DNA of 64,000 bases, from positions 4,092,001 through 4,156,000 of the forward strand of contig OX597824.1 of the NCBI GenBank assembly GCA_951406725.2, read 5' to 3'. Of this stretch, positions 3,949 through 59,249 are shown in pieces (the stretch's first letter is position 1; each line of letters opens with the position of its first letter). This DNA is from Octopus vulgaris (lineage: Eukaryota). The notes below the pieces were generated by a model that was not told the DNA's origin, made no database searches, and saw nothing but the letters and a program-made list of their open reading frames with translations. Position numbers and translations under genes: made by a program.

Positions 3949-4183
3949 TGAAATAATTCTATTTTTTACATTTCTTAATCCTGGTTGAGATAATATTTTG
4001 ACATTGTGACCAATCAGTCCATGAACATGGTATTGTCTCTGAATTAAATTATTCTTTTATACGTTTCTCAATGTTTCTGTAACTGTCTGACTATTTATGA
4101 CTTACACTTCTATATTGAAGAGATGGGGAATTATCTACATTATTTACATTTGATGGATATTTGTCCTCATCTTGTTTGTTGTT

Positions 4184-4229
4184 AACACAACATTTCAGCT
4201 GATATACTCTCCATCCTTCATCAGGTGTC
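4184..4229 (-). ncRNA. Minimal type I hammerhead ribozyme motif, left arm of copy A (degenerate)
   Basis: Minus strand reads GACAC CTGATGA AGGATG...CAGCT GAAAT GTT GTGTT. Confidence 0.6.
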
Positions 4230-4524
4230 TTGGGGAAATTTCAACCCTGGGTTCTCATTCCTATGGTACTTTTCAATATTATTATTATTATTATTCAGGT
4301 CACTACCTGGAATCGAACTTGGTATCTTGGGATTAGTAGCCTGTGCTCTTAACCACTACACCCACAGGCATATAGCGTAGTGGTTAAGAGCACGGGTTAT
4401 TAACCCCAAGATTCCGAGTTCGATTCCAGGCAGTGACCTGAATAACAATAATAATAATAATAATAATAACAACAACATTGAAAAATACCTCAGGAATGAG
4501 AACCCAGGTTTGAAATTTCCCCAA

Positions 4525-4570
4525 GACACCTGATGAAGGCTGGATAGTATATCAGCCGAAATGTTGTGTT
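4525..4570 (+). ncRNA. Minimal type I hammerhead ribozyme motif, right arm of copy A
   Basis: GACAC CTGATGA A GGCTG gatagtatat CAGCC GAAA TGTT GTGTT. Stem I GACAC/GTGTT, stem II GGCTG/CAGCC; stem III palindrome AACGTT decayed to AATGTT. Confidence 0.7.
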
Positions 4571-4624
4571 AACAACAAACAAGATGAGGACAAATATCCA
4601 TCAAATGTAAATAATGTATTTCTG

Positions 4625-5845: not shown

Positions 5846-6293
5846 CTGCAAATATAAGAACATCAAGATTTGAGATTGCCAACACTAATATAAAGATACA
5901 CATACAAGTAGGTTCAAATACACACAGACACATTTTTACTAGGAAATTGTTGATAGTGACTTTGAAGTTTCAGCTCAGTTACCCTCATTTGAGAGTCTGA
6001 CAAAAGCAACTGAGTTGCAATTTTGATGTCCACTGACAAGCTTTTCTTTGTAAAAGTAAATGCATTATTTGTGCTTAAATAACAATTCGGCTAATGGATG
6101 TTTCTACATATAAACAGTAGACGAAAATGAAAATTAAAACACATACCAACCCCACCAACACACATTACAGACTATGAGCTTCACCTTTCAGCTTGATTGA
6201 CCCCCATCCCACCCACCAAAAAATAAAATAGAATAACAAACAAAAACAGAGGCAGCAATTTATATTTCATTTAATATATGTGTGTCTGTGTAA

Positions 6294-6524
6294 GGCAGCG
6301 AGCTGGCAGAAACATTAGCAGGCCGGGCAAAATGCTTTGCAATATTTTGTATGCCACTATGTTCTGAGTTCAAATTCCGCCAAGGTCGACTTTGCCTTTC
6401 ATCCTTTCGGGGTCGATAAATTAAGTACCAGTTACGCACTGGGGTCGATATAATTGACTTGATCCGTTTGTCTGTCCTTGTTTGTCCTCTCTGTGTTTAG
6501 CCCCTTGTGGGTAGTAAAGAAATA
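6294..6524 (+). mobile_element. SINE family 1, full length
   Basis: Matches 268-498; imperfect TSD ATATGTG(TG)TCTGTGT. Confidence 0.85.
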
Positions 6525-6737
6525 TATGTGTCTGTGTGTCCCCACACACACACTGTAAGTGTTATGTATGAAACTCTGAATCCTTGAGTCAGTTTGTAAC
6601 TTCTGCTGGTTTTAAATTACAAGATATTTATAATCAAGCGTTGAAAACTAATGTAATAAGTTCTATCTATCCCCTGCTTTTTCTCCCAAATTTATCTATG
6701 TATGTGTGTGTGTGTATGTGTGTGTGTGTGTGTGTAT

Positions 6738-9448: not shown

Positions 9449-9702
9449 TATTTCTTTACTGCTAAACACAGAGAGGACAAATGGATTAAACACAGAGCTA
9501 AACACAGAGAGGACAAACAAGGACAGACAAATGGATTAAGTCGATTATATCGACCCCAGTACGTAACTGGTACTTATTTAATCGACTCCGAAAGGATGAA
9601 AGGCAAAGTCGACCTCGGTGGAATTTGAACTCAGAATGTAACAGCAGACGAAATACCGCTAAGCATCTCGCCCGGTGTGCTAATGTTTCTGCCAGCTCGC
9701 CG
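9449..9702 (-). mobile_element. SINE family 1
   Basis: Reverse complement of the 268-498 family with a local duplication near the tail. Confidence 0.85.
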
Positions 9703-11995
9703 TCTTCTTTCTTACTAAACATGGACAAGTGCCCAAAACATTGGATTTTTTATTCCTTACGGTAAATTGGCTCACTACAATTTTTCCTTTCTTTCATAAA
9801 CATTTATGGATTGGAATTTGATGATGCAGACCACTGCCAGTGTCCTTGGATTCCAAATGTTATTTTATACAAGGCCTTAATTTGCTTCTACACTATAGAA
9901 GCCACTCAATTAAGAAGTACCAGTAATTAATACCCATAACTTTAGAAATTAACAAAGTTTGGTCGTTGATTCAATGAAATATGTTCCTTCAACATAGCAA
10001 AAAACGAAAAGAGGGAAATAATCTGCAGATGGTGCCGATGTTGGCAGGTTTGATACCATTTCAAAAGAAATCAGTCTTCACACGATTAGCAGCTCAGGCT
10101 AAGATTTCTAAGGAAATGGCAACTGAAACACTGAGACATTTATTCCTTAAGAGTGTTCTCATTTCACGAAGAGCAACGTAGCTCTAACGAGGAATGGAAT
10201 GGTCTGTAGACTCAGTTTGCCAGAAGCTAACTTCTCTCTGCTCTGGCAATTATTTATTAAATAACAATAATATCTACATATAAATTATTCCAATATTACA
10301 TGCTTAAATAGTTTAGATGAGTTATTCATGATAATAATTTAAAATTTCAGGGCTATTAACCTTCTCGTTAGTGTTTTATGCTTCGTCTATGTTTCCATTA
10401 GTTCTGTTTGCAATCACGTGTCTGTGTATTCCGTGTCTGTGTGTGTGTGTATATATATAACTATATATAGGTGATATATGAGCATGCACACACACACATA
10501 TGTATGTATGTGAGTGTATATATATATATGAATACATACATAAATGTCTGGGAGGGGTGCATGTGTGTTTGTGTGTGTGTGTTTGTTTTTTGTGTGTGTG
10601 TGTGTGTTTGTGTATGTGTGTATATATGTGTGTGTTTGTTTTTGTGTGTGTGTGAATGTGTTAACGTTTCCCTGCTTTGAAAGTGAAAGGAGATTTAAGC
10701 CATTTGCATGATGATGCTAATAGTGAAAAAGACAAAAAAATATGCAAATTAACATTTATATGTTAACTATAAAAGGTATATATTATCATAATTATAATAT
10801 TTAAGAACTAAAACGGTGGTGTGTAGGTAGTTATGATAATTTCCCATAAAACTGAGTTTCTGATTTCAAATTCCACCAGGGGTTTCCCTTTATTTGAAGT
10901 TTCTATCTGTAATAAATTGGCCTTCGTTCTCAGCTAAATGATTCAGTAATTAACTGGAATTTCAATTATGATATTTGACTTTAATTACTTATGTATGTAT
11001 CAAATAAAATCTCCGATATTTAAACATTATAATGACTATATTTACTTCCTAACTCACTCAGAGGTGGCATGAGACAGTCAGGTGTCTGACTAAATGCCTT
11101 ATACTATTTAACTGTGTTCCTTGTGGTCATGAGTTCAAATCCCTGTGATGGTGATAAAAAATTGTATTGAGTAAATAAGAATAAAATAACTGGATAACTT
11201 GAGGTAGTCGAAATTAATCCTAAATGACCATCCCCCTAAAACATTTTTTGCTTTGTAATCAAAAAACCGATATTTAAACTTACCGCTACTTACCTGCTTT
11301 CGCGTTAGTCATAAATTGGTAGAAAGATGGTGGGGGGGGGAAAGGAGAAAGTAAAAAAAAAATATTCCCTTAGAAAAAATAAAATGACTTTGTTGACAAT
11401 AGGGAGTGAAGGGGGAAAGGCAGTGGCGAGGGTGGGGGCAAGTTTGATAGACTTGTTGTATGTAGGAACACTTGTAAATCACTCACATAATTTAAGACTT
11501 GAGGGAGTTGGAGGGAGTAACTTTGGGGGGTGGAAAAACATAAATAAAAAGGGACATACATTAAATATGAACCAGCACACACACACACACACACGATGTG
11601 AACTGACATGACATGACATGATCTGACATGACATAAGAGTGGTGCAGACCGAGAGTGGCACCACATTAGAACTACTACTTGGTGACAGCTGTAATCATCA
11701 CCACCCACACCCACCAACCCACCCTTCCTACCTACCTACCTACCTACCACGACCACCACTCCCCCCACATTGGCCAATACTACTGTTACTCACAAGGGCT
11801 ACTGTTTATGATGTTGTAGTTTATCCTGATGTTAGCCTGGTCCAGCAAGGCTTACAACCAAAACTGTTCCAACCATGACCATCCCATCAGAGTAAGGTAA
11901 TCTGATCTGGCAGGTAAAGAAATGGCATGATAGAGGCCCCTTCCATTGGTCTGTTGTGATAGGGTTATCTTTCAAGAGATGTATGTTTTGTACTG

Positions 11996-14024: not shown

Positions 14025-14545
14025 AGAGTCAAACTGACTAATAGATAAGATATGAGACTGACAATCCATGTAGGTGAGGGCCACAAGCTGCAGGGAGGCA
14101 AACCAAACACTGACAAAGTAAGTGGGGTATCAGACTGACAATCTCTGTAGATAGGGTTACCAAGTAGATAAGGGGTCAAAGAAAAGAGGAGTGTTAGAGT
14201 GACAACAGAAATAGATAAGGGTAGCAGGCTCACAATCCAAGTAGCGAAGGGTGTCAGACCGCCCCCCCCCCCCGATAATCCAAGGCACATGGGAATATCA
14301 AACTGGCAATAAAATTAGATAATGGATGTTAAAGAGACAATAAAAAAAAAAAAAAGAATAAGGGTTCCAAACTGACAATCCATGTAAAGGGTCCCAGACT
14401 GACAATCCACATCAGTGCCATAGTTAAAGAAAGAGGGTGTCAGAAGAATAATCCATGTAAATAGGGGTGTGTTAAACTGATAATCCAAGGTAGAGATGTC
14501 ATAGGGACAATCAAAGCAGACAAGAATGTTAGACTGCCAAGTAAA
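14025..14545 (+). repeat. Degenerate tandem array of roughly 30-bp units (core GTCA[A/G]ACTGACAATCCATGTA)
   Basis: About ten diverged recurrences of ACTGACAATCC-like cores. Confidence 0.7.
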
Positions 14546-14557
14546 GAACATACACAG

Positions 14558-14706
14558 TTCTATATTTAAGAGATGAGGAATTATGTACATTAGTTACAAT
14601 TGACAGATATTTGTCCTCATCTTGTTTGTTGTTATACCCTCCAGCCTTCATCAAGGGTCTTGGAGAATTTTCGAACCTGGGTTCTCATTCCTAAGGTATT
14701 TTTTGA

Positions 14707-14739
<33 letters not shown>

Positions 14740-14890
14740 CATCATTTTTCAGGTCACTACCTGGAATCGAACTTGGAATCTTGGGGTTAGTAGCCCGCAC
14801 TCTTAACCACTATGCCCATGGGCATATGGTGTAGTGGTTAAGAGCGCGGGCTATTAACCCCAAGATTGTGAATTCGATTCCAGGCAGTGA

Positions 14891-14946
<56 letters not shown>

Positions 14947-15084
14947 TTGAAAAATACCTTAGGAACGAGAACTGAAGTTCGAAATTTCCTCAAGACACCT
15001 GATGAAGGCTGGAGGGTATATCAGCCGAAATGTTGTGTTAACAACAAACAATATGATTGACAAATATCTGTCGAAAGTAAATAA
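14558..15084. mobile_element. Head-to-head inverted dimer of the tRNA-head/(AAT)n/hammerhead element, copy B
   Basis: Same architecture as 4108-4618; palindromic centre TATGCCCATGGGCATA; left-only tail TTCTATATTTAAGAGATGAGGAATTAT; left HHR partly deleted. Confidence 0.85.
14994..15039 (+). ncRNA. Minimal type I hammerhead ribozyme motif, copy B right arm
   Basis: GACAC CTGATGA A GGCTG gagggtatat CAGCC GAAA TGTT GTGTT. Confidence 0.7.
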
Positions 15085-18000
15085 AGAGCATATAGTATGT
15101 CCCTTGTTACTGAAGTACTATTCTGTTACGTCCACGGCCATATATTGAATATCCCAGACCATCAGGCAGAAATAGGTGACATGAGCATGGTGTAGTTTGT
15201 CTTTGTAAGCAGGGGCCAGTGGTGTTTAACTGGTGTTTTTTATGAGACACAATGGTGACTTCAACTATTCTTAGGTGTGAAATGGGGGATGAATATGACC
15301 AAGTGGACTTTCTTCTACAGACATCGAATGAAGACAGACAAAAAAGCACCACCCAGGATCCAATGGCTTACAACATACCACATTATTTTCCTTCACTGCT
15401 CAGTTATCTCCTTCACCTCTCTTACATCTCTCCCTCCACTCCACATCTCTCAACTCAGTCCTTTCTTTCTTTCTTTTTTTCTCTCTCTCATTCTTCCATT
15501 TTCCTCCTTTGACCACTTCACTCATTCTCTCTCTCTCTCTCTGCTAGCTTCTCCTCCTTTTGTACCATTCAGGCCACAATTATTTCCCTCCAACCTGTCC
15601 TGTTGCTCCTCTTCTTCCTCTTCTTCTCTCTTTTACAGTGTTCCTCTTCTGCTCTTTTACTGTCATTTCCTCTTCACTGGTTTCCCAAACTCATCAGTTG
15701 GCATTCATTCCTGCAATGAGAGAAACGAAACAAAAATTTCATTAGTAAATTACTTATGAGTGCTTATGAGCTTTTAATGAGTGTGTCTGATTTTTAGATC
15801 TTAGAAAACAATTAACCAATGTCAAGACTTGGTCACTTAAAGTGCTTTGATCTAGAGATCAACATGGAACATATTGAAACTATAAAACTCTCATATTATT
15901 ACAAATTCAAGATGTTGCCCCAGCATGGTCACAGTCAAATGCCTCAAACAAGTAAAAAATAAAAGACAAGTTATCCTCTCGAGGTTTGTTTAACGTGTGT
16001 CTAATCAAGTGAAAACAGAAACTAATTATAACATTTATAATCAATTAGCAACTCTCGTTAACAGAATTCCCTTTTTTGCATCAGAATTTTATTTTAAATT
16101 AAGATGGATACAATACTTCAAACTTACAGATGATCATGACAAGAATTGTGCATAAAATTCCTAAAGTGTCGACATTTCAAACTTTATTAATTTACATAAC
16201 AAAATAGAATCCAGGAGAAATGGTACAATATTTACGGAATTCAATTGATTTCAGTTCTTATATCTGATCGATACAAAACGAATGGTCTTTGACTGAGGTA
16301 CTCAAGTACTTTCACATAACGGTACATGTGTGCATAAAGAAGATCACCACCATTACTTTAACATCCATTTTTCCATGGTCTCATGGACTGGAAGGAAGTT
16401 AGTTGAAGTACATTTGCTACAGCCAAATGCTGTTCCTGTCACCCACCCTCACCTGTCCCCAAGCAAAGTAATATTTCCCCATGACCAGACATGTTTTCAT
16501 GGAAGATTTTAAACGAAGGATACTAATTGCCATGACCGTGACATGCATTTACCACCATTATACAATGTCAGAGCAACAAGACTAAAACACACACACATAC
16601 ACATCTATATACATATATAAATAAAGAGGCTTCTTCTTGTTTCCTCACTCACAAGCCTTTGGTGAGCCCAGAAGACATTTGCCCCAGGTGCCAAGCAACA
16701 GGACAGAACCTGGAACCAGATGATTTGGAAGTCATTCGTGCATCTATGTATACACGTATTTACGCATGAATGCATACGTTTGAATATACACCCATGCGTA
16801 AAATATTATGACATGTATATTTAAAAACATTCAGACATAAAGTCTTATCCAAATAATTGTCAAATGAATTGTATTTTTGCTTTCATTTATTTGTTTGTAA
16901 TTATTTTTTTAAAAATTGTGTCAATAATTTTAAAAGATGGTATTTCACACAAAACAACACTGCAATAATGACGGCTTTTATGCTTCTCTCTCTGTGCCAT
17001 TTTTTCAATTATTTCTGCTTTTATGTAGTTTCTATGTTATTATAATGATTCTAATTTCATAAATATAACAGACTTAAATTCCATCATTATCATAATTCAC
17101 ACACTCTTAAGATTAGTCTAGTATATATATGTGTGTATATGCATACTTATACACATAACCTCTCTCTCTCTCTCTACAATTTACACACACACACATGTGT
17201 TTGTGTGTGTGTGTCATTTTGAGAAATTTCATATTGGTTTTTCTTTGAAATTCTGACATATTTCTTGAATCTTCAAAGAAAAGAAAATTTTTTTTAAAAA
17301 TCTAATAAACTATGTTACATCCAATGTTTAAATGGGTTCACAGCCATTATCAAGAATTTGATTTGAAGTAAAACCATCATAATAACAAAAAGAAAGGGAA
17401 AAAAGGAAAAGGAAAAGAAGTGGGGCAGGAGTTAGAAGCTGCTGAAAGCAATAAAAATCAATGTTGGTTCTAATGGCAATATGAATACTTAATCTATTGT
17501 GTCTGGAATATCTCAGCATGTATGCCAGATGGCATTATATATACATGGAGTCAGTGTACACCAAACAGCTGTCTGGCAAATGAGAATGCAATATTTAAAA
17601 TTAACAAGGACTGCTACAGCAATCTTCTGGTTATTTTGGTGTTTGAATTTCCATAGGATTATCCTATTGCCAATCAAGATTTCTCGGCCTAATTTGGAAT
17701 TACAAGTAGTGATTAGGTGTGTGGAAGCTGTCATCATGCCCAGCACAGGAATGAGAAAAAAAAAAAAAAACAGAAAGAAGTCTGCTATGATTTGTTTAAG
17801 AATCACTGATGGAGGCCAAATTTGTATTTTGGCAACTGTCTTATGGCAAGTGAATTCATAAATAATGTTACTTTTCTATGACTGCTTATCATTAAATGAC
17901 AAAATTTGCTTTAAGTTCTATTGATTTTAAAGATTTTCTCTGAGCTAATGCTTCGGTATATATATGCAGACTTAACCAGGCAAACATTATGAAGAAATGC

Positions 18001-18553: not shown

Positions 18554-18952
18554 TTCTATATTTTAGAGTGTACAGTATTTACAGTGATGGACAGGTGTCC
18601 TCACCTTGTTTGTTGTTACCGCAACGTTTCGGCTGATGCACTCTCCAGGCTTCATCAGGTGTCCTGGTGGAATTTCGAACCCAATCCTTTAATTGACTAA
18701 TGGGGTCTTCTCTTCTCATGCTTAAGGTATTCTTTCTTCCTGATGTTATTTTTTCTGTTGATATTATTTCCCAAGTCTCTGCTTGAGATTGAACTCAGAA
18801 TCCGTGGGTTAGTAGTACCCCATTAGTCAAATAAAGAGTTGGATTCGAAATTCCACCAGAACACTCAATGAAGGCTTGAGAGTACATCAGCTGAAATGTT
18901 GTGGTAACAACAAACAAGGTGAGGACACCTGTCCATCCTATGTAAATAATGT
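18554..18952. mobile_element. Diverged subfamily of the inverted tRNA/hammerhead element, copy C
   Basis: Starts with the same TTCTATATT tail. Long left arm carries a minus-strand HHR (18618-18663) with intact GAAACGTT and part of the tRNA-like head; shorter right arm about 18817-18952. Confidence 0.75.
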
Positions 18953-25866: not shown

Positions 25867-27123
25867 ATGCATTACTCTTGCGATTAGTAATAAAAGTAAT
25901 TTTGTTTGAGTATTGAGACTGTATATTAATCTGTCAAAGTATCTAGTTTGTTTATAATATATTGTCATATATGTGTGTATGTTTATATACACATGTATGT
26001 ATACATGTGTGTGTGTGTGTGTGTATGTGTGACTGAGTGCACATTCCATCTCATTTTGACATGTGTGCACTGATTGTTGCATGCATGCATGTTTGTATGC
26101 ATGTATGTATATATGTTTGTTTGTATGTATGTATGTGTATATATATATGTACTGTGTCAAGTTGTGCCCCTTGTATAAAGAAAAAAGAACCTAACTTAGT
26201 GATCTGATGAATAGAAATTTTATGAAATAAATCCCAGGATGAAACAGATATTGAAATCAATATGATCAATGAAGACCATTGGAAATAGTGCACCAGCAAG
26301 GTTGCACTCCAATGACTGAAAAGCCATTAAAAAAAATAATAATAAAACTGAAATGATTATATAACAATTTGTTTATAAAAATGATGTCTCAGATAATAGC
26401 TTCATGCTTTAAAGTCAGCCTGAAACTATTCACTTTCTAATATTCATTTAAAATATGTGCAGAGGAGGTTTATGAATGTTAATCACAACAGTGTATTAGA
26501 AAAGTTATCATTGAAAACAAGAAATCTATTCAATTTTCGTTTGATTTATGGACACTATTAGACCTTTAGCACAAATCAGCAATCCAGAGAAGAGATTTTA
26601 GTCTCAAACAACAGATGTTGCCAAATTATAGATTTTTAGCTTTGATAAATAAAGGCAACAATTTTGACAAAAATCACAAATAGTTACTATGTTCATGACC
26701 ATGTTGTTGCATAGTCACTGCTACACAGCCAAGGACCAGATTTGTACTATCAGTTGATAACAAGTTACAGCAAGCTATTGGCTAATGTTTGATCATTGAT
26801 AAGTAACAAGTTACAGCAAGTTGCAGATCAGATTTAACTATCAGAGGCATTTGCCAATCGTTACTAGTGAAAAACGGAGCCAATCAATAAGTATCAAACT
26901 GTACAGATACATGTACACACATGCACATCCATGCGTGTGTGTGTGTGTATCTAAGTGCTGTATGGCCAAATAGTTAAGTTTGTTTTACAACCATGAGATG
27001 CTGGGTTCAATCCCGTTCTGAGGAATCTTGGACAAGTGTCAATTTCCATAGCCTTGGCTCAGCCCATCCCTTGTGAATGAAAATGAGTGGACAATGAATT
27101 CATGGAAACCTGTCAGATGTACC

Positions 27124-27315
27124 TATTTCTTTACTACCCACAAGGGGCTAAACACGGAAGGGACAAACGAGGACAGGCAAACGGATTAAGTCAATTATAT
27201 CGACCCCAGTGCGTAACTGGTATTTATTTAATCGACCCCGAATGGATGAAAGGCAAAGTCGACCTTGGCAGAATTTGAACTCAGAACGTAGCGGCAGACG
27301 AAATACCGCTAACGT
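27124..27315 (-). mobile_element. SINE family 1, 5'-truncated
   Basis: Reverse complement of the family consensus. Confidence 0.85.
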
Positions 27316-38624: not shown

Positions 38625-38965
38625 GTTCAACTGGTACTTATTCTATCAACCCCGAAATGATGACAGGTAAAGTCAATCTCAGCAACATTTGAACACAGAA
38701 TGAAAGGCCAGAAGAAATACCTATTTCTTTACTACCCACAAGGGGCTAAACACAGAGAGGACAAACAAGGACAGACAAACGGAATAAGTCGATTATATCG
38801 ACCCCAGTGCGTAACTGGTACTTAATTTATCGGCCCCGAAAGGATGAAAGGCAAAGTCGACCTCAACGGAATTTGAACTCAGAACGTAGTGGCAGACGAA
38901 ATACTGCTAAGCATTTTCGCCCGGCGTGCTAACGTTTCTGCCAGAAGAAATACCACCGGGCATTT
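38625..38965 (-). mobile_element. Young SINE family 1 copy (38722-38945) nested in an older related copy
   Basis: 15-bp duplication GCCAGAAGAAATACC at 38707-38721 and 38940-38954. Confidence 0.85.
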
Positions 38966-50892: not shown

Positions 50893-51091
50893 TTTGGCAC
50901 AAGGCCAGTAATTCTGGGGAAAAGGCTAAGTCGATTACATGAACCCCAATACTAAACTGCTACTTATTTTATCGACCCCAAAAGGATGAAAGGCAAAGTC
51001 GACCTTGGCAGAATTTGAACTCAGAATGCAAAGACAGATGAAATACCACTAGGCATTTTGCCCGGCATGCTAACGATTCTGCCATCTCACC
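50893..51091 (-). mobile_element. SINE family 1
   Basis: ATCGACCCCAAAAGGATGAAAGGCAAAGTCGACC...TTTGAACTCAG. Confidence 0.8.
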
Positions 51092-55791: not shown

Positions 55792-55907
<116 letters not shown>

Positions 55908-58460: not shown

Positions 58461-58551
58461 ATGCATGTGTGTGTGAGTGCAATAAATCAAATAAAACTGC
58501 TGAATATCTACATTAATAAAGAAACCTATGGCCAGTATTAAACAAGGCAAA

Positions 58552-58782
58552 GGCGGCGAGCTGGTAGAATCGTTAGCACGCCGGGCGAAATGCGTAGCCG
58601 TATTTCGTCTGCCATTACGTTCGGAGTTCAAATTCCACTGAGGTCGAATTTGCCTTTCATCCTTTCGGGGTTGATAAATTAAGTACCAGTTACGCACTGG
58701 AGTCGATGTAATCGACTTAAGCCCTTTGTCTGTCCTTGTTTGTCCCCTCTATGTTTAGCCCCTTGTGGGTAGTAAAGAAATA
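58552..58782 (+). mobile_element. SINE family 1, full length with TSD
   Basis: Family consensus; AGTATTAAACAA[G/A]GCA on both sides. Confidence 0.9.
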
Positions 58783-59249
58783 AGTATTAAACAAAGCAGT
58801 TCATGTCTGAGACATTTCTGAACATTTTAGAAGGAAATTACCATTTATGGTAACAAAATTATTTAATGTGATGTGTACACTAACAATAAGAAATTATATG
58901 GTTATAAGGCTGTACGAGGTTCAGCCTCAGGCATTTTGTAATATCTAGATAAATATTTTGATTTATGATCGTAAAAATATGTTTGTTCTGAACAGGTCTC
59001 TTTTTCAGAAAGATAAATTACAAATCTTTAATTCCTTGTTTCTAAAGTTTCAATGTTTTTCAAATAATTGTGCCTGACATTATTTCTTAAAACCAGACAA
59101 ACTTATGTGTAGTGATCTTTCAAGTTTTCCAGAAGGATATTGATGTTCACTGAATTTCAACTTGGAAGGATTCACAGTAAAATGGATATGGAGTTTAGAA
59201 ATTGCATTATCTGCTGTAAATATTGACACACAATAGACTTTCAATTTCT

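Follow-up and report, generated by a model that had tools for sequence, protein, structure and literature searches.

Inverted pairs of end repeats from a Penelope-like element carry a tRNA-like head in the Octopus vulgaris genome

Results

Architecture of the insertion

The window analyzed here, a 64-kb stretch of the 2.8-Gb Octopus vulgaris genome, contains a Penelope-type dimer of about 530 bases at positions 14555–15082 (Table 1). The dimer reads as a minus-strand tail, core, (ATT)n run and head, followed by a plus-strand head, (AAT)n run and core. Its inverted arms (14585–14813 and 14820–15082) carry (ATT)n and (AAT)n runs of different lengths, and a 30-nt tail (14555–14584) is present on the left arm only. 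The arms, the left-only tail and the unequal (AAT)n lengths had been described correctly by an earlier sequence-only reading of the window, and a second copy at 4105–4618 has the same layout. That reading had also suspected a decayed target-site duplication in the flanks, which we confirm: AAAGAACATACA (14543–14554) and AAAGAGCATATA (15083–15094) directly adjoin the element ends, and their length equals the modal 12-bp duplication of the family. This duplication was read by eye; the decayed right end was not placed by our script.

Table 1. Features of the window discussed in the text.
Feature	Position	Strand	Remark
SINE-like family, ~220 nt	263–504, 6292–6533, 9490–9709, 27120–27312, 38713–38917, 50927–51091, 58550–58788		
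Second insertion	4105–4618	.	same family, same junction type, own 12-bp target-site duplication
Target-site duplication, left copy	14543–14554	+	12 bp; family mode 12 nt
PLE tail	14555–14584	−	absent from the right arm; continues into the ORF in parent copies
Left arm core	14585–14706	−	PLE ORF start; a 20-nt deletion removes half of the hammerhead motif
(AAT)n microsatellite, left arm	14707–14748	−	
Left tRNA-like head	14749–14813	−	5'-truncated near the A box
GCCC-RY-GGGC palindrome	14814–14823	.	putative RNA 5' end; junction hot spot
Right tRNA-like head	14820–14894	+	A- and B-box-like motifs; not a functional tRNA
(AAT)n microsatellite, right arm	14895–14947	+	
Right arm core	14948–15082	+	end just before the tail
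Minimal type-I hammerhead motif	14994–15039	+	position 15.2 decayed from C to T
Target-site duplication, right copy	15083–15094	+	2 transitions relative to the left copy

The centers of the two window copies align without gaps over 48 nt and differ at 7 positions, 6 of which are CpG sites with decay in the opposite sense in each copy: CG became TG in the 14555–15082 copy and CA in the 4105–4618 copy. TATGCCCATGGGCATA is a perfect palindrome solely by CpG decay. The junction type is therefore common to the two copies, and the distinct central junction previously attributed to one of them is thus explained by such decay.

The window holds other repeats. An older relative of the dimer at 18554–18952 has a one-sided tail, a diverged head and a core segment of about 20 extra nucleotides where its two arms join, and the AAAAAGATAATA-like flanks on both of its sides may be a target-site duplication. 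A separate, abundant SINE-like family is unrelated to the head by BLAST, and an (ATA)n run followed directly by (ATT)n at 55792–55892 is a microsatellite hairpin.

The arms are the end repeat of a Penelope-like element

The exact 30-nt tail has 3680 matches in the genome, against 0 for the reversed control. Several loci of a tail-anchored set (the first 90 matches on contig C1, taken without regard to junction) extend upstream of the head into coding-like DNA. A protein search with one such piece returned 150 scored matches, from which 15 loci and 10 longer stretches were examined. In most of loci L141–L165, head and core lie directly 3' of the end of an ORF, with variable 5' truncation and often with an inverted piece of the end repeat (pLTR) upstream. 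A frame of 321 residues at L153 has matches at E ≤ 1e-20 in 51 longer proteins, most of them with a recorded reverse transcriptase (RT) domain, and aligns at 53% with P0003 (RVT_1) across the end of the RT, the linker and the C-terminal domain. The ORF is decayed in both L153 and L156, and a Pfam scan of three L153 frames returned no match over cut-off. The C-terminal GIY-YIG domain is weakly scored, its assignment resting on the P0003 alignment and on a sub-threshold Pfam match on a homologue (E 0.017 on P0008, below cut-off).

The other end of the repeat leads into the same ORF. The tail runs into the ORF start at L169, L171, L173, L174, L178, L179, L184, L187 and L189, so that core, tail and ORF are continuous at at least 9 of the 25 loci holding the 5' part of the ORF. 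The translated core corresponds to the first ORF residues and resembles the N-terminus of P0003, and L321 is arranged as ORF–pLTR–ORF–pLTR with a period of about 2.5 kb. We therefore identify the arms as the pLTR of a decayed Penelope-like element (PLE) with an RT and GIY-YIG ORF; the sequence-only reading had overlooked this identity along with the minimal hammerhead motif of the pLTR. Outside CpG sites, the pLTR is about 4.7% diverged from its consensus.

The family shows the characters of EN+ PLEs: a single ORF with RT and C-terminal GIY-YIG domains in the parent (the latter weakly scored), a pLTR that derives from partial tandems and holds the ORF start, an inverted 5'-truncated copy with a tail of 30–40 bp at one end and a hammerhead motif in the pLTR, recognized by motif and fold against the descriptors in the available text of PMC4209133. 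As far as the accessible portions of PMC3846280 and PMC8557442 go, EN+ PLEs such as Pen2a_Av of Adineta vaga share with the octopus family the first ORF codons in the pLTR, an inverted 5'-truncated copy with a tail of about 30 bp at one end, partial tandems and a palindrome at the pLTR 5' end. They differ in having target-site duplications of 8–10 bp, compared with about 12 bp here, and TATA- or Inr-like motifs, where the octopus repeat begins with a tRNA-like head and (AAT)n. Within the text available for Poseidon_Ac of Anolis (PMC11167929), the hammerhead likewise overlaps the ORF start and RT start sites lie at both tail ends, with extension of both strands in vitro; no tRNA-like segment is reported in that text.

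Each core contains a CUGANGA/GAAA motif with a predicted fold comprising a 5-bp helix I and a 6-bp helix II. Both motifs are damaged in the 14555–15082 copy, the left one by the 20-nt deletion and the right one by a CpG change, and Rfam returned no hammerhead family match in the element. A common subfamily change inside the motif falls at what we take to be the free position 7. The minimal PLE hammerheads presented in the available text of PMC4209133 have in common with ours the 5-bp helix I, an extra base before helix II, the G10.1–C11.1 pair and palindromic positions 15.2–16.2, and differ in a helix II of 7–8 bp. Opposed hammerheads in PLE pLTRs, and Schistosoma hammerhead pairs lying 100–700 bp apart on opposite strands, are already noted there.

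Complex insertions, which have additional pieces of tail or core or show template jumping between the head and the start of the ORF, are seen at L043, L082, L157, L165, L322 and L323. Other repeats often interrupt the (AAT)n run of the pLTR or take its place (L003, L004, L009, L012, L293, L298, L316), which suggests that this run is a target for later insertions. A genome search with the Pfam GIY-YIG profile recovered other families only, with no similarity to the pLTR in 20 loci of 148 matches; L127, L132 and other matches belong to a separate family, probably a younger element, in which open frames of 781 aa are numerous.

Evidence that the inversion is rebuilt at each insertion

The sequence-only reading had proposed that the inversion is rebuilt at each integration, in which case junctions should vary and cluster at the tRNA 5' end, and arms should be more alike within than between copies. 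An adjacent inverted arm occurs at 46 of the 90 tail-anchored loci, and all 46 junction coordinates, which are BLAST ends and uncertain by a few bases, are distinct. Our script found no adjacent inverted arm at the other 44 loci (solo arms, later insertions or mis-parsed cases).

We compared arms in a set of 221 sequences (120 + 100 loci and the 4105–4618 copy, duplicates removed), 78 of which contain both cores; these 78 dimers include junction-selected loci. The tail is on one arm in 71 dimers, on neither in 7 and on both in 0. None of 143 alignment columns is arm-specific (smallest p 0.019, uncorrected), and arms with and without a tail do not cluster separately (distances 0.084, 0.086 and 0.085). 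The two arms of a copy are closer to each other than to arms of other copies (0.077 versus 0.085) and share more variants (0.82 versus 0.35), values that none of 5000 permutations reached; a rare variant is common to both arms in only 14 of the 78 dimers. Gene conversion between arms could also produce this higher similarity within copies. Flanking duplications were measurable for 61 of 71 dimers; 48 of the 61 have a target-site duplication of at least 10 nt, compared with 2.7% of shuffled pairs, and the mode is 12.

By pattern matching, the junction type of the two window copies occurs 77 times genome-wide. A symmetric type has 485 strand hits, corresponding to about half as many loci, and is about 3 times commoner. 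Among 30 of the 77 window-type loci, the tail is on the short-head arm in 11 (one of which, L224, is doubtful by eye), on the long-head arm in 7 and unscorable in 12. Since the tail side varies among loci with this junction, the same junction forms repeatedly.

The proposal of per-integration inversion is therefore upheld by the genome-wide copies: their junctions differ, with a cluster at the tRNA-like 5' end, and their left and right arms do not group separately. The two window copies, which share a junction, do not contribute to this support. A fixed palindromic DNA transposon (MITE or foldback element) would have terminal inverted arms, and would fit the junction type and tail side common to the two window copies. 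Its fixed internal structure, copied as DNA, was not found in the family: junctions are variable, tail side is not tied to junction, arm-specific sites are absent and the parent encodes an RT. We therefore give this origin almost no credence.

Two-ended priming as the probable source of the inverted arms

We consider it probable that the dimer is a 5'-truncated PLE insertion composed solely of two inverted pLTR copies, synthesized at insertion by RT primed from both ends of a staggered cut. The two arms begin at opposite ends of the tail, one at its outer and one at its inner end, and the inner ends of the arms vary independently. In 37 of 46 cases the tail-less arm has its outer end at the boundary of the tail, while its inner end is variable, as two primings from two cut ends predict. 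According to the available text of PMC11167929, a lizard PLE is able in vitro to nick both strands and extend them, with RT starts at both tail ends.

Our model of the insertion begins with an endonuclease cut with a stagger of about 12 nt, after which cDNA synthesis would be primed by each 3' end, using one of the two internal start sites on either side of the tail, and microhomology would join the two products. Most template RNAs would begin about 6 nt before the tRNA-like head, and full-length cDNAs would thus end in the GCCC-RY-GGGC palindrome. This palindrome may anneal to the partner cDNA or fold back over a few bases, generating recurrent junction classes, to one of which both window copies would belong.

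The same PLE origin could be combined with self-priming (fold-back) of a single cDNA or RNA at the 5' palindrome, as Arkhipova et al. reportedly proposed in 2013 for the inverted arm. The palindrome does sit at the commonest stop, short fold-back pieces lie upstream of many heads, symmetric junctions outnumber the window's type and arms are closer within a copy; the available text of PMC3846280 also reads junction palindromes as self-priming. Fold-back, however, predicts a fixed inner and a free outer end, the reverse of what we observe, and many pairs join non-matching positions (for example 0 with 126, or 178 with 1).

Subfamily markers bear on the same question. At one subfamily site, the arms agree in 62 of the 78 dimers, differ as A/T in 9 and show a gap or third base in 7. 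The 9 discordant pairs compare with about 1.4 expected from a background mutation of 0.9%, an excess not given by simple fold-back of one cDNA, and hint at two templates. A hypermutable site or ectopic conversion could also account for them, and few pairs of arms differ at all markers. We regard fold-back as an unlikely origin of the inverted arm as a whole. The sequence-only reading had suggested RT fold-back at the RNA 5' end, and part of this stands: short fold-back pieces at the center (for example L098, L099, L281, L282 and L318) and the symmetric junction class demonstrate that self-priming, or annealing of the palindrome, takes place as well, whereas the end pattern of the tail-less arm speaks against it as the general route.

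A tRNA-like head at the 5' end of the repeat

The head is colinear with tRNA-Arg(TCG) of the same genome, with 46 of 70 positions identical and a score of 65 compared with 30 ± 4.5 (maximum 48) for 500 shuffles, in a comparison that covered 30 tRNA loci of 6 isotypes only. It has the A and B boxes of the tRNA-related head of tRNA-derived SINEs. ARAGORN and Rfam found no tRNA in the element, the Rfam miRNA matches being hairpin artefacts below cut-off, and the head does not fold better than shuffled sequences (z 0.28 and −0.02). The head is not a tRNA gene.

Copies stop sharply at the head. Of 29 tail arms reaching +10, 22 end within −10 to +10 of the head start. Genome-wide, 2114 matches extend as far as −6 and 328 go a further 8 nt into the parent, roughly a quarter when decay is allowed for. 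Of the first 51 head-anchored loci listed, 11 were already present in other sets; among the remaining 40, the sequence of 8 runs into the parent, or 6 of 37 after near-duplicates are merged. Transcription start at −6 is the simplest reading of this stop. The position is 13 nt above the A box, the usual start spacing for Pol III, and 28 nt below a TATAA-like motif overlapping the ORF stop, a distance that would fit Pol II. As a third possibility, RT may stop at the palindrome. Within the pLTR, the copies have no T4 run in common. The Pol III start that the sequence-only reading predicted at the junction is a plausible candidate.

The SINE-like layout of head, AAT run and partner's end, the excess of short over ORF-linked copies (2114 versus 328) and the retention of A and B boxes in short copies would also be compatible with an independent tRNA-derived SINE that borrowed a PLE end and is now propagated through Pol III transcription of its own short copies. 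The head, however, lies inside an ORF-bearing tandem unit, both marker haplotypes also occur in ORF-linked copies (L156, L075, L289) and the PLE core follows in most of the 40 head-anchored loci. We found no non-autonomous family separate from the coding unit of the partner, and an independent SINE appears highly improbable.

Reads from three raw RNA-seq runs of one study, whose species label may differ from that of the window, were aligned to a diverged copy as reference. Core coverage was heavy and equal in both orientations, with almost none over the ORF, and 78–79% of the reads run into unrelated sequence; no start pile-up at the head was seen in these runs against this reference. The pattern is that of read-through of scattered copies and is silent on the promoter. 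Within read-through RNA, the stubs would provide ready-made hairpins and would probably be substrates of ADAR; heavy editing of a lizard Penelope is described in the available text of PMC5625713.

Discussion

The anatomy of the 14555–15082 copy is known PLE anatomy: the copy is an ordinary stub and its junction is not special. Inverted copies, one-sided tails, target-site duplications and 5' palindromes are described for PLEs in the available text of PMC8557442, PMC3846280 and PMC8969392, and the first two call the way in which PLEs build inverted ends unresolved. A 2026 preprint, available in part, links animal retrozymes to PLE pLTRs.

The tRNA-like head is the unusual feature of this PLE family. 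We found no description of a tRNA-headed PLE in the openly accessible literature searched. Octopus tRNA-derived SINEs, named OR1, OR2 and OK, were reportedly described by Ohshima and Okada in 1994. Likened by description only, tRNA-derived SINEs, including these, have a tRNA-related head with A- and B-box-like motifs followed by a partner's end, as here; unlike in such SINEs, the head of the present family belongs to an ORF-bearing unit, which inserts as inverted pairs.

We tentatively raise the possibility that this PLE captured a tRNA-type (Pol III) promoter in its end repeat and thereby produces short, SINE-like RNAs of its own, and that a dimeric enzyme inserts two RNAs at once, one per cut end and sometimes from different source copies. 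If true, the family would combine a protein-coding retroelement with a SINE of its own and would preserve a natural record of insertion from two templates. Its thousands of copies show a sharp 5' stop and two fixed 3' starts and carry subfamily markers, by which two-ended priming and fold-back are separable by counting. For annotation, such PLE stubs can be mistaken for SINEs or MITEs, and the head, if it is a working Pol III promoter, blurs the line between PLEs and SINEs.
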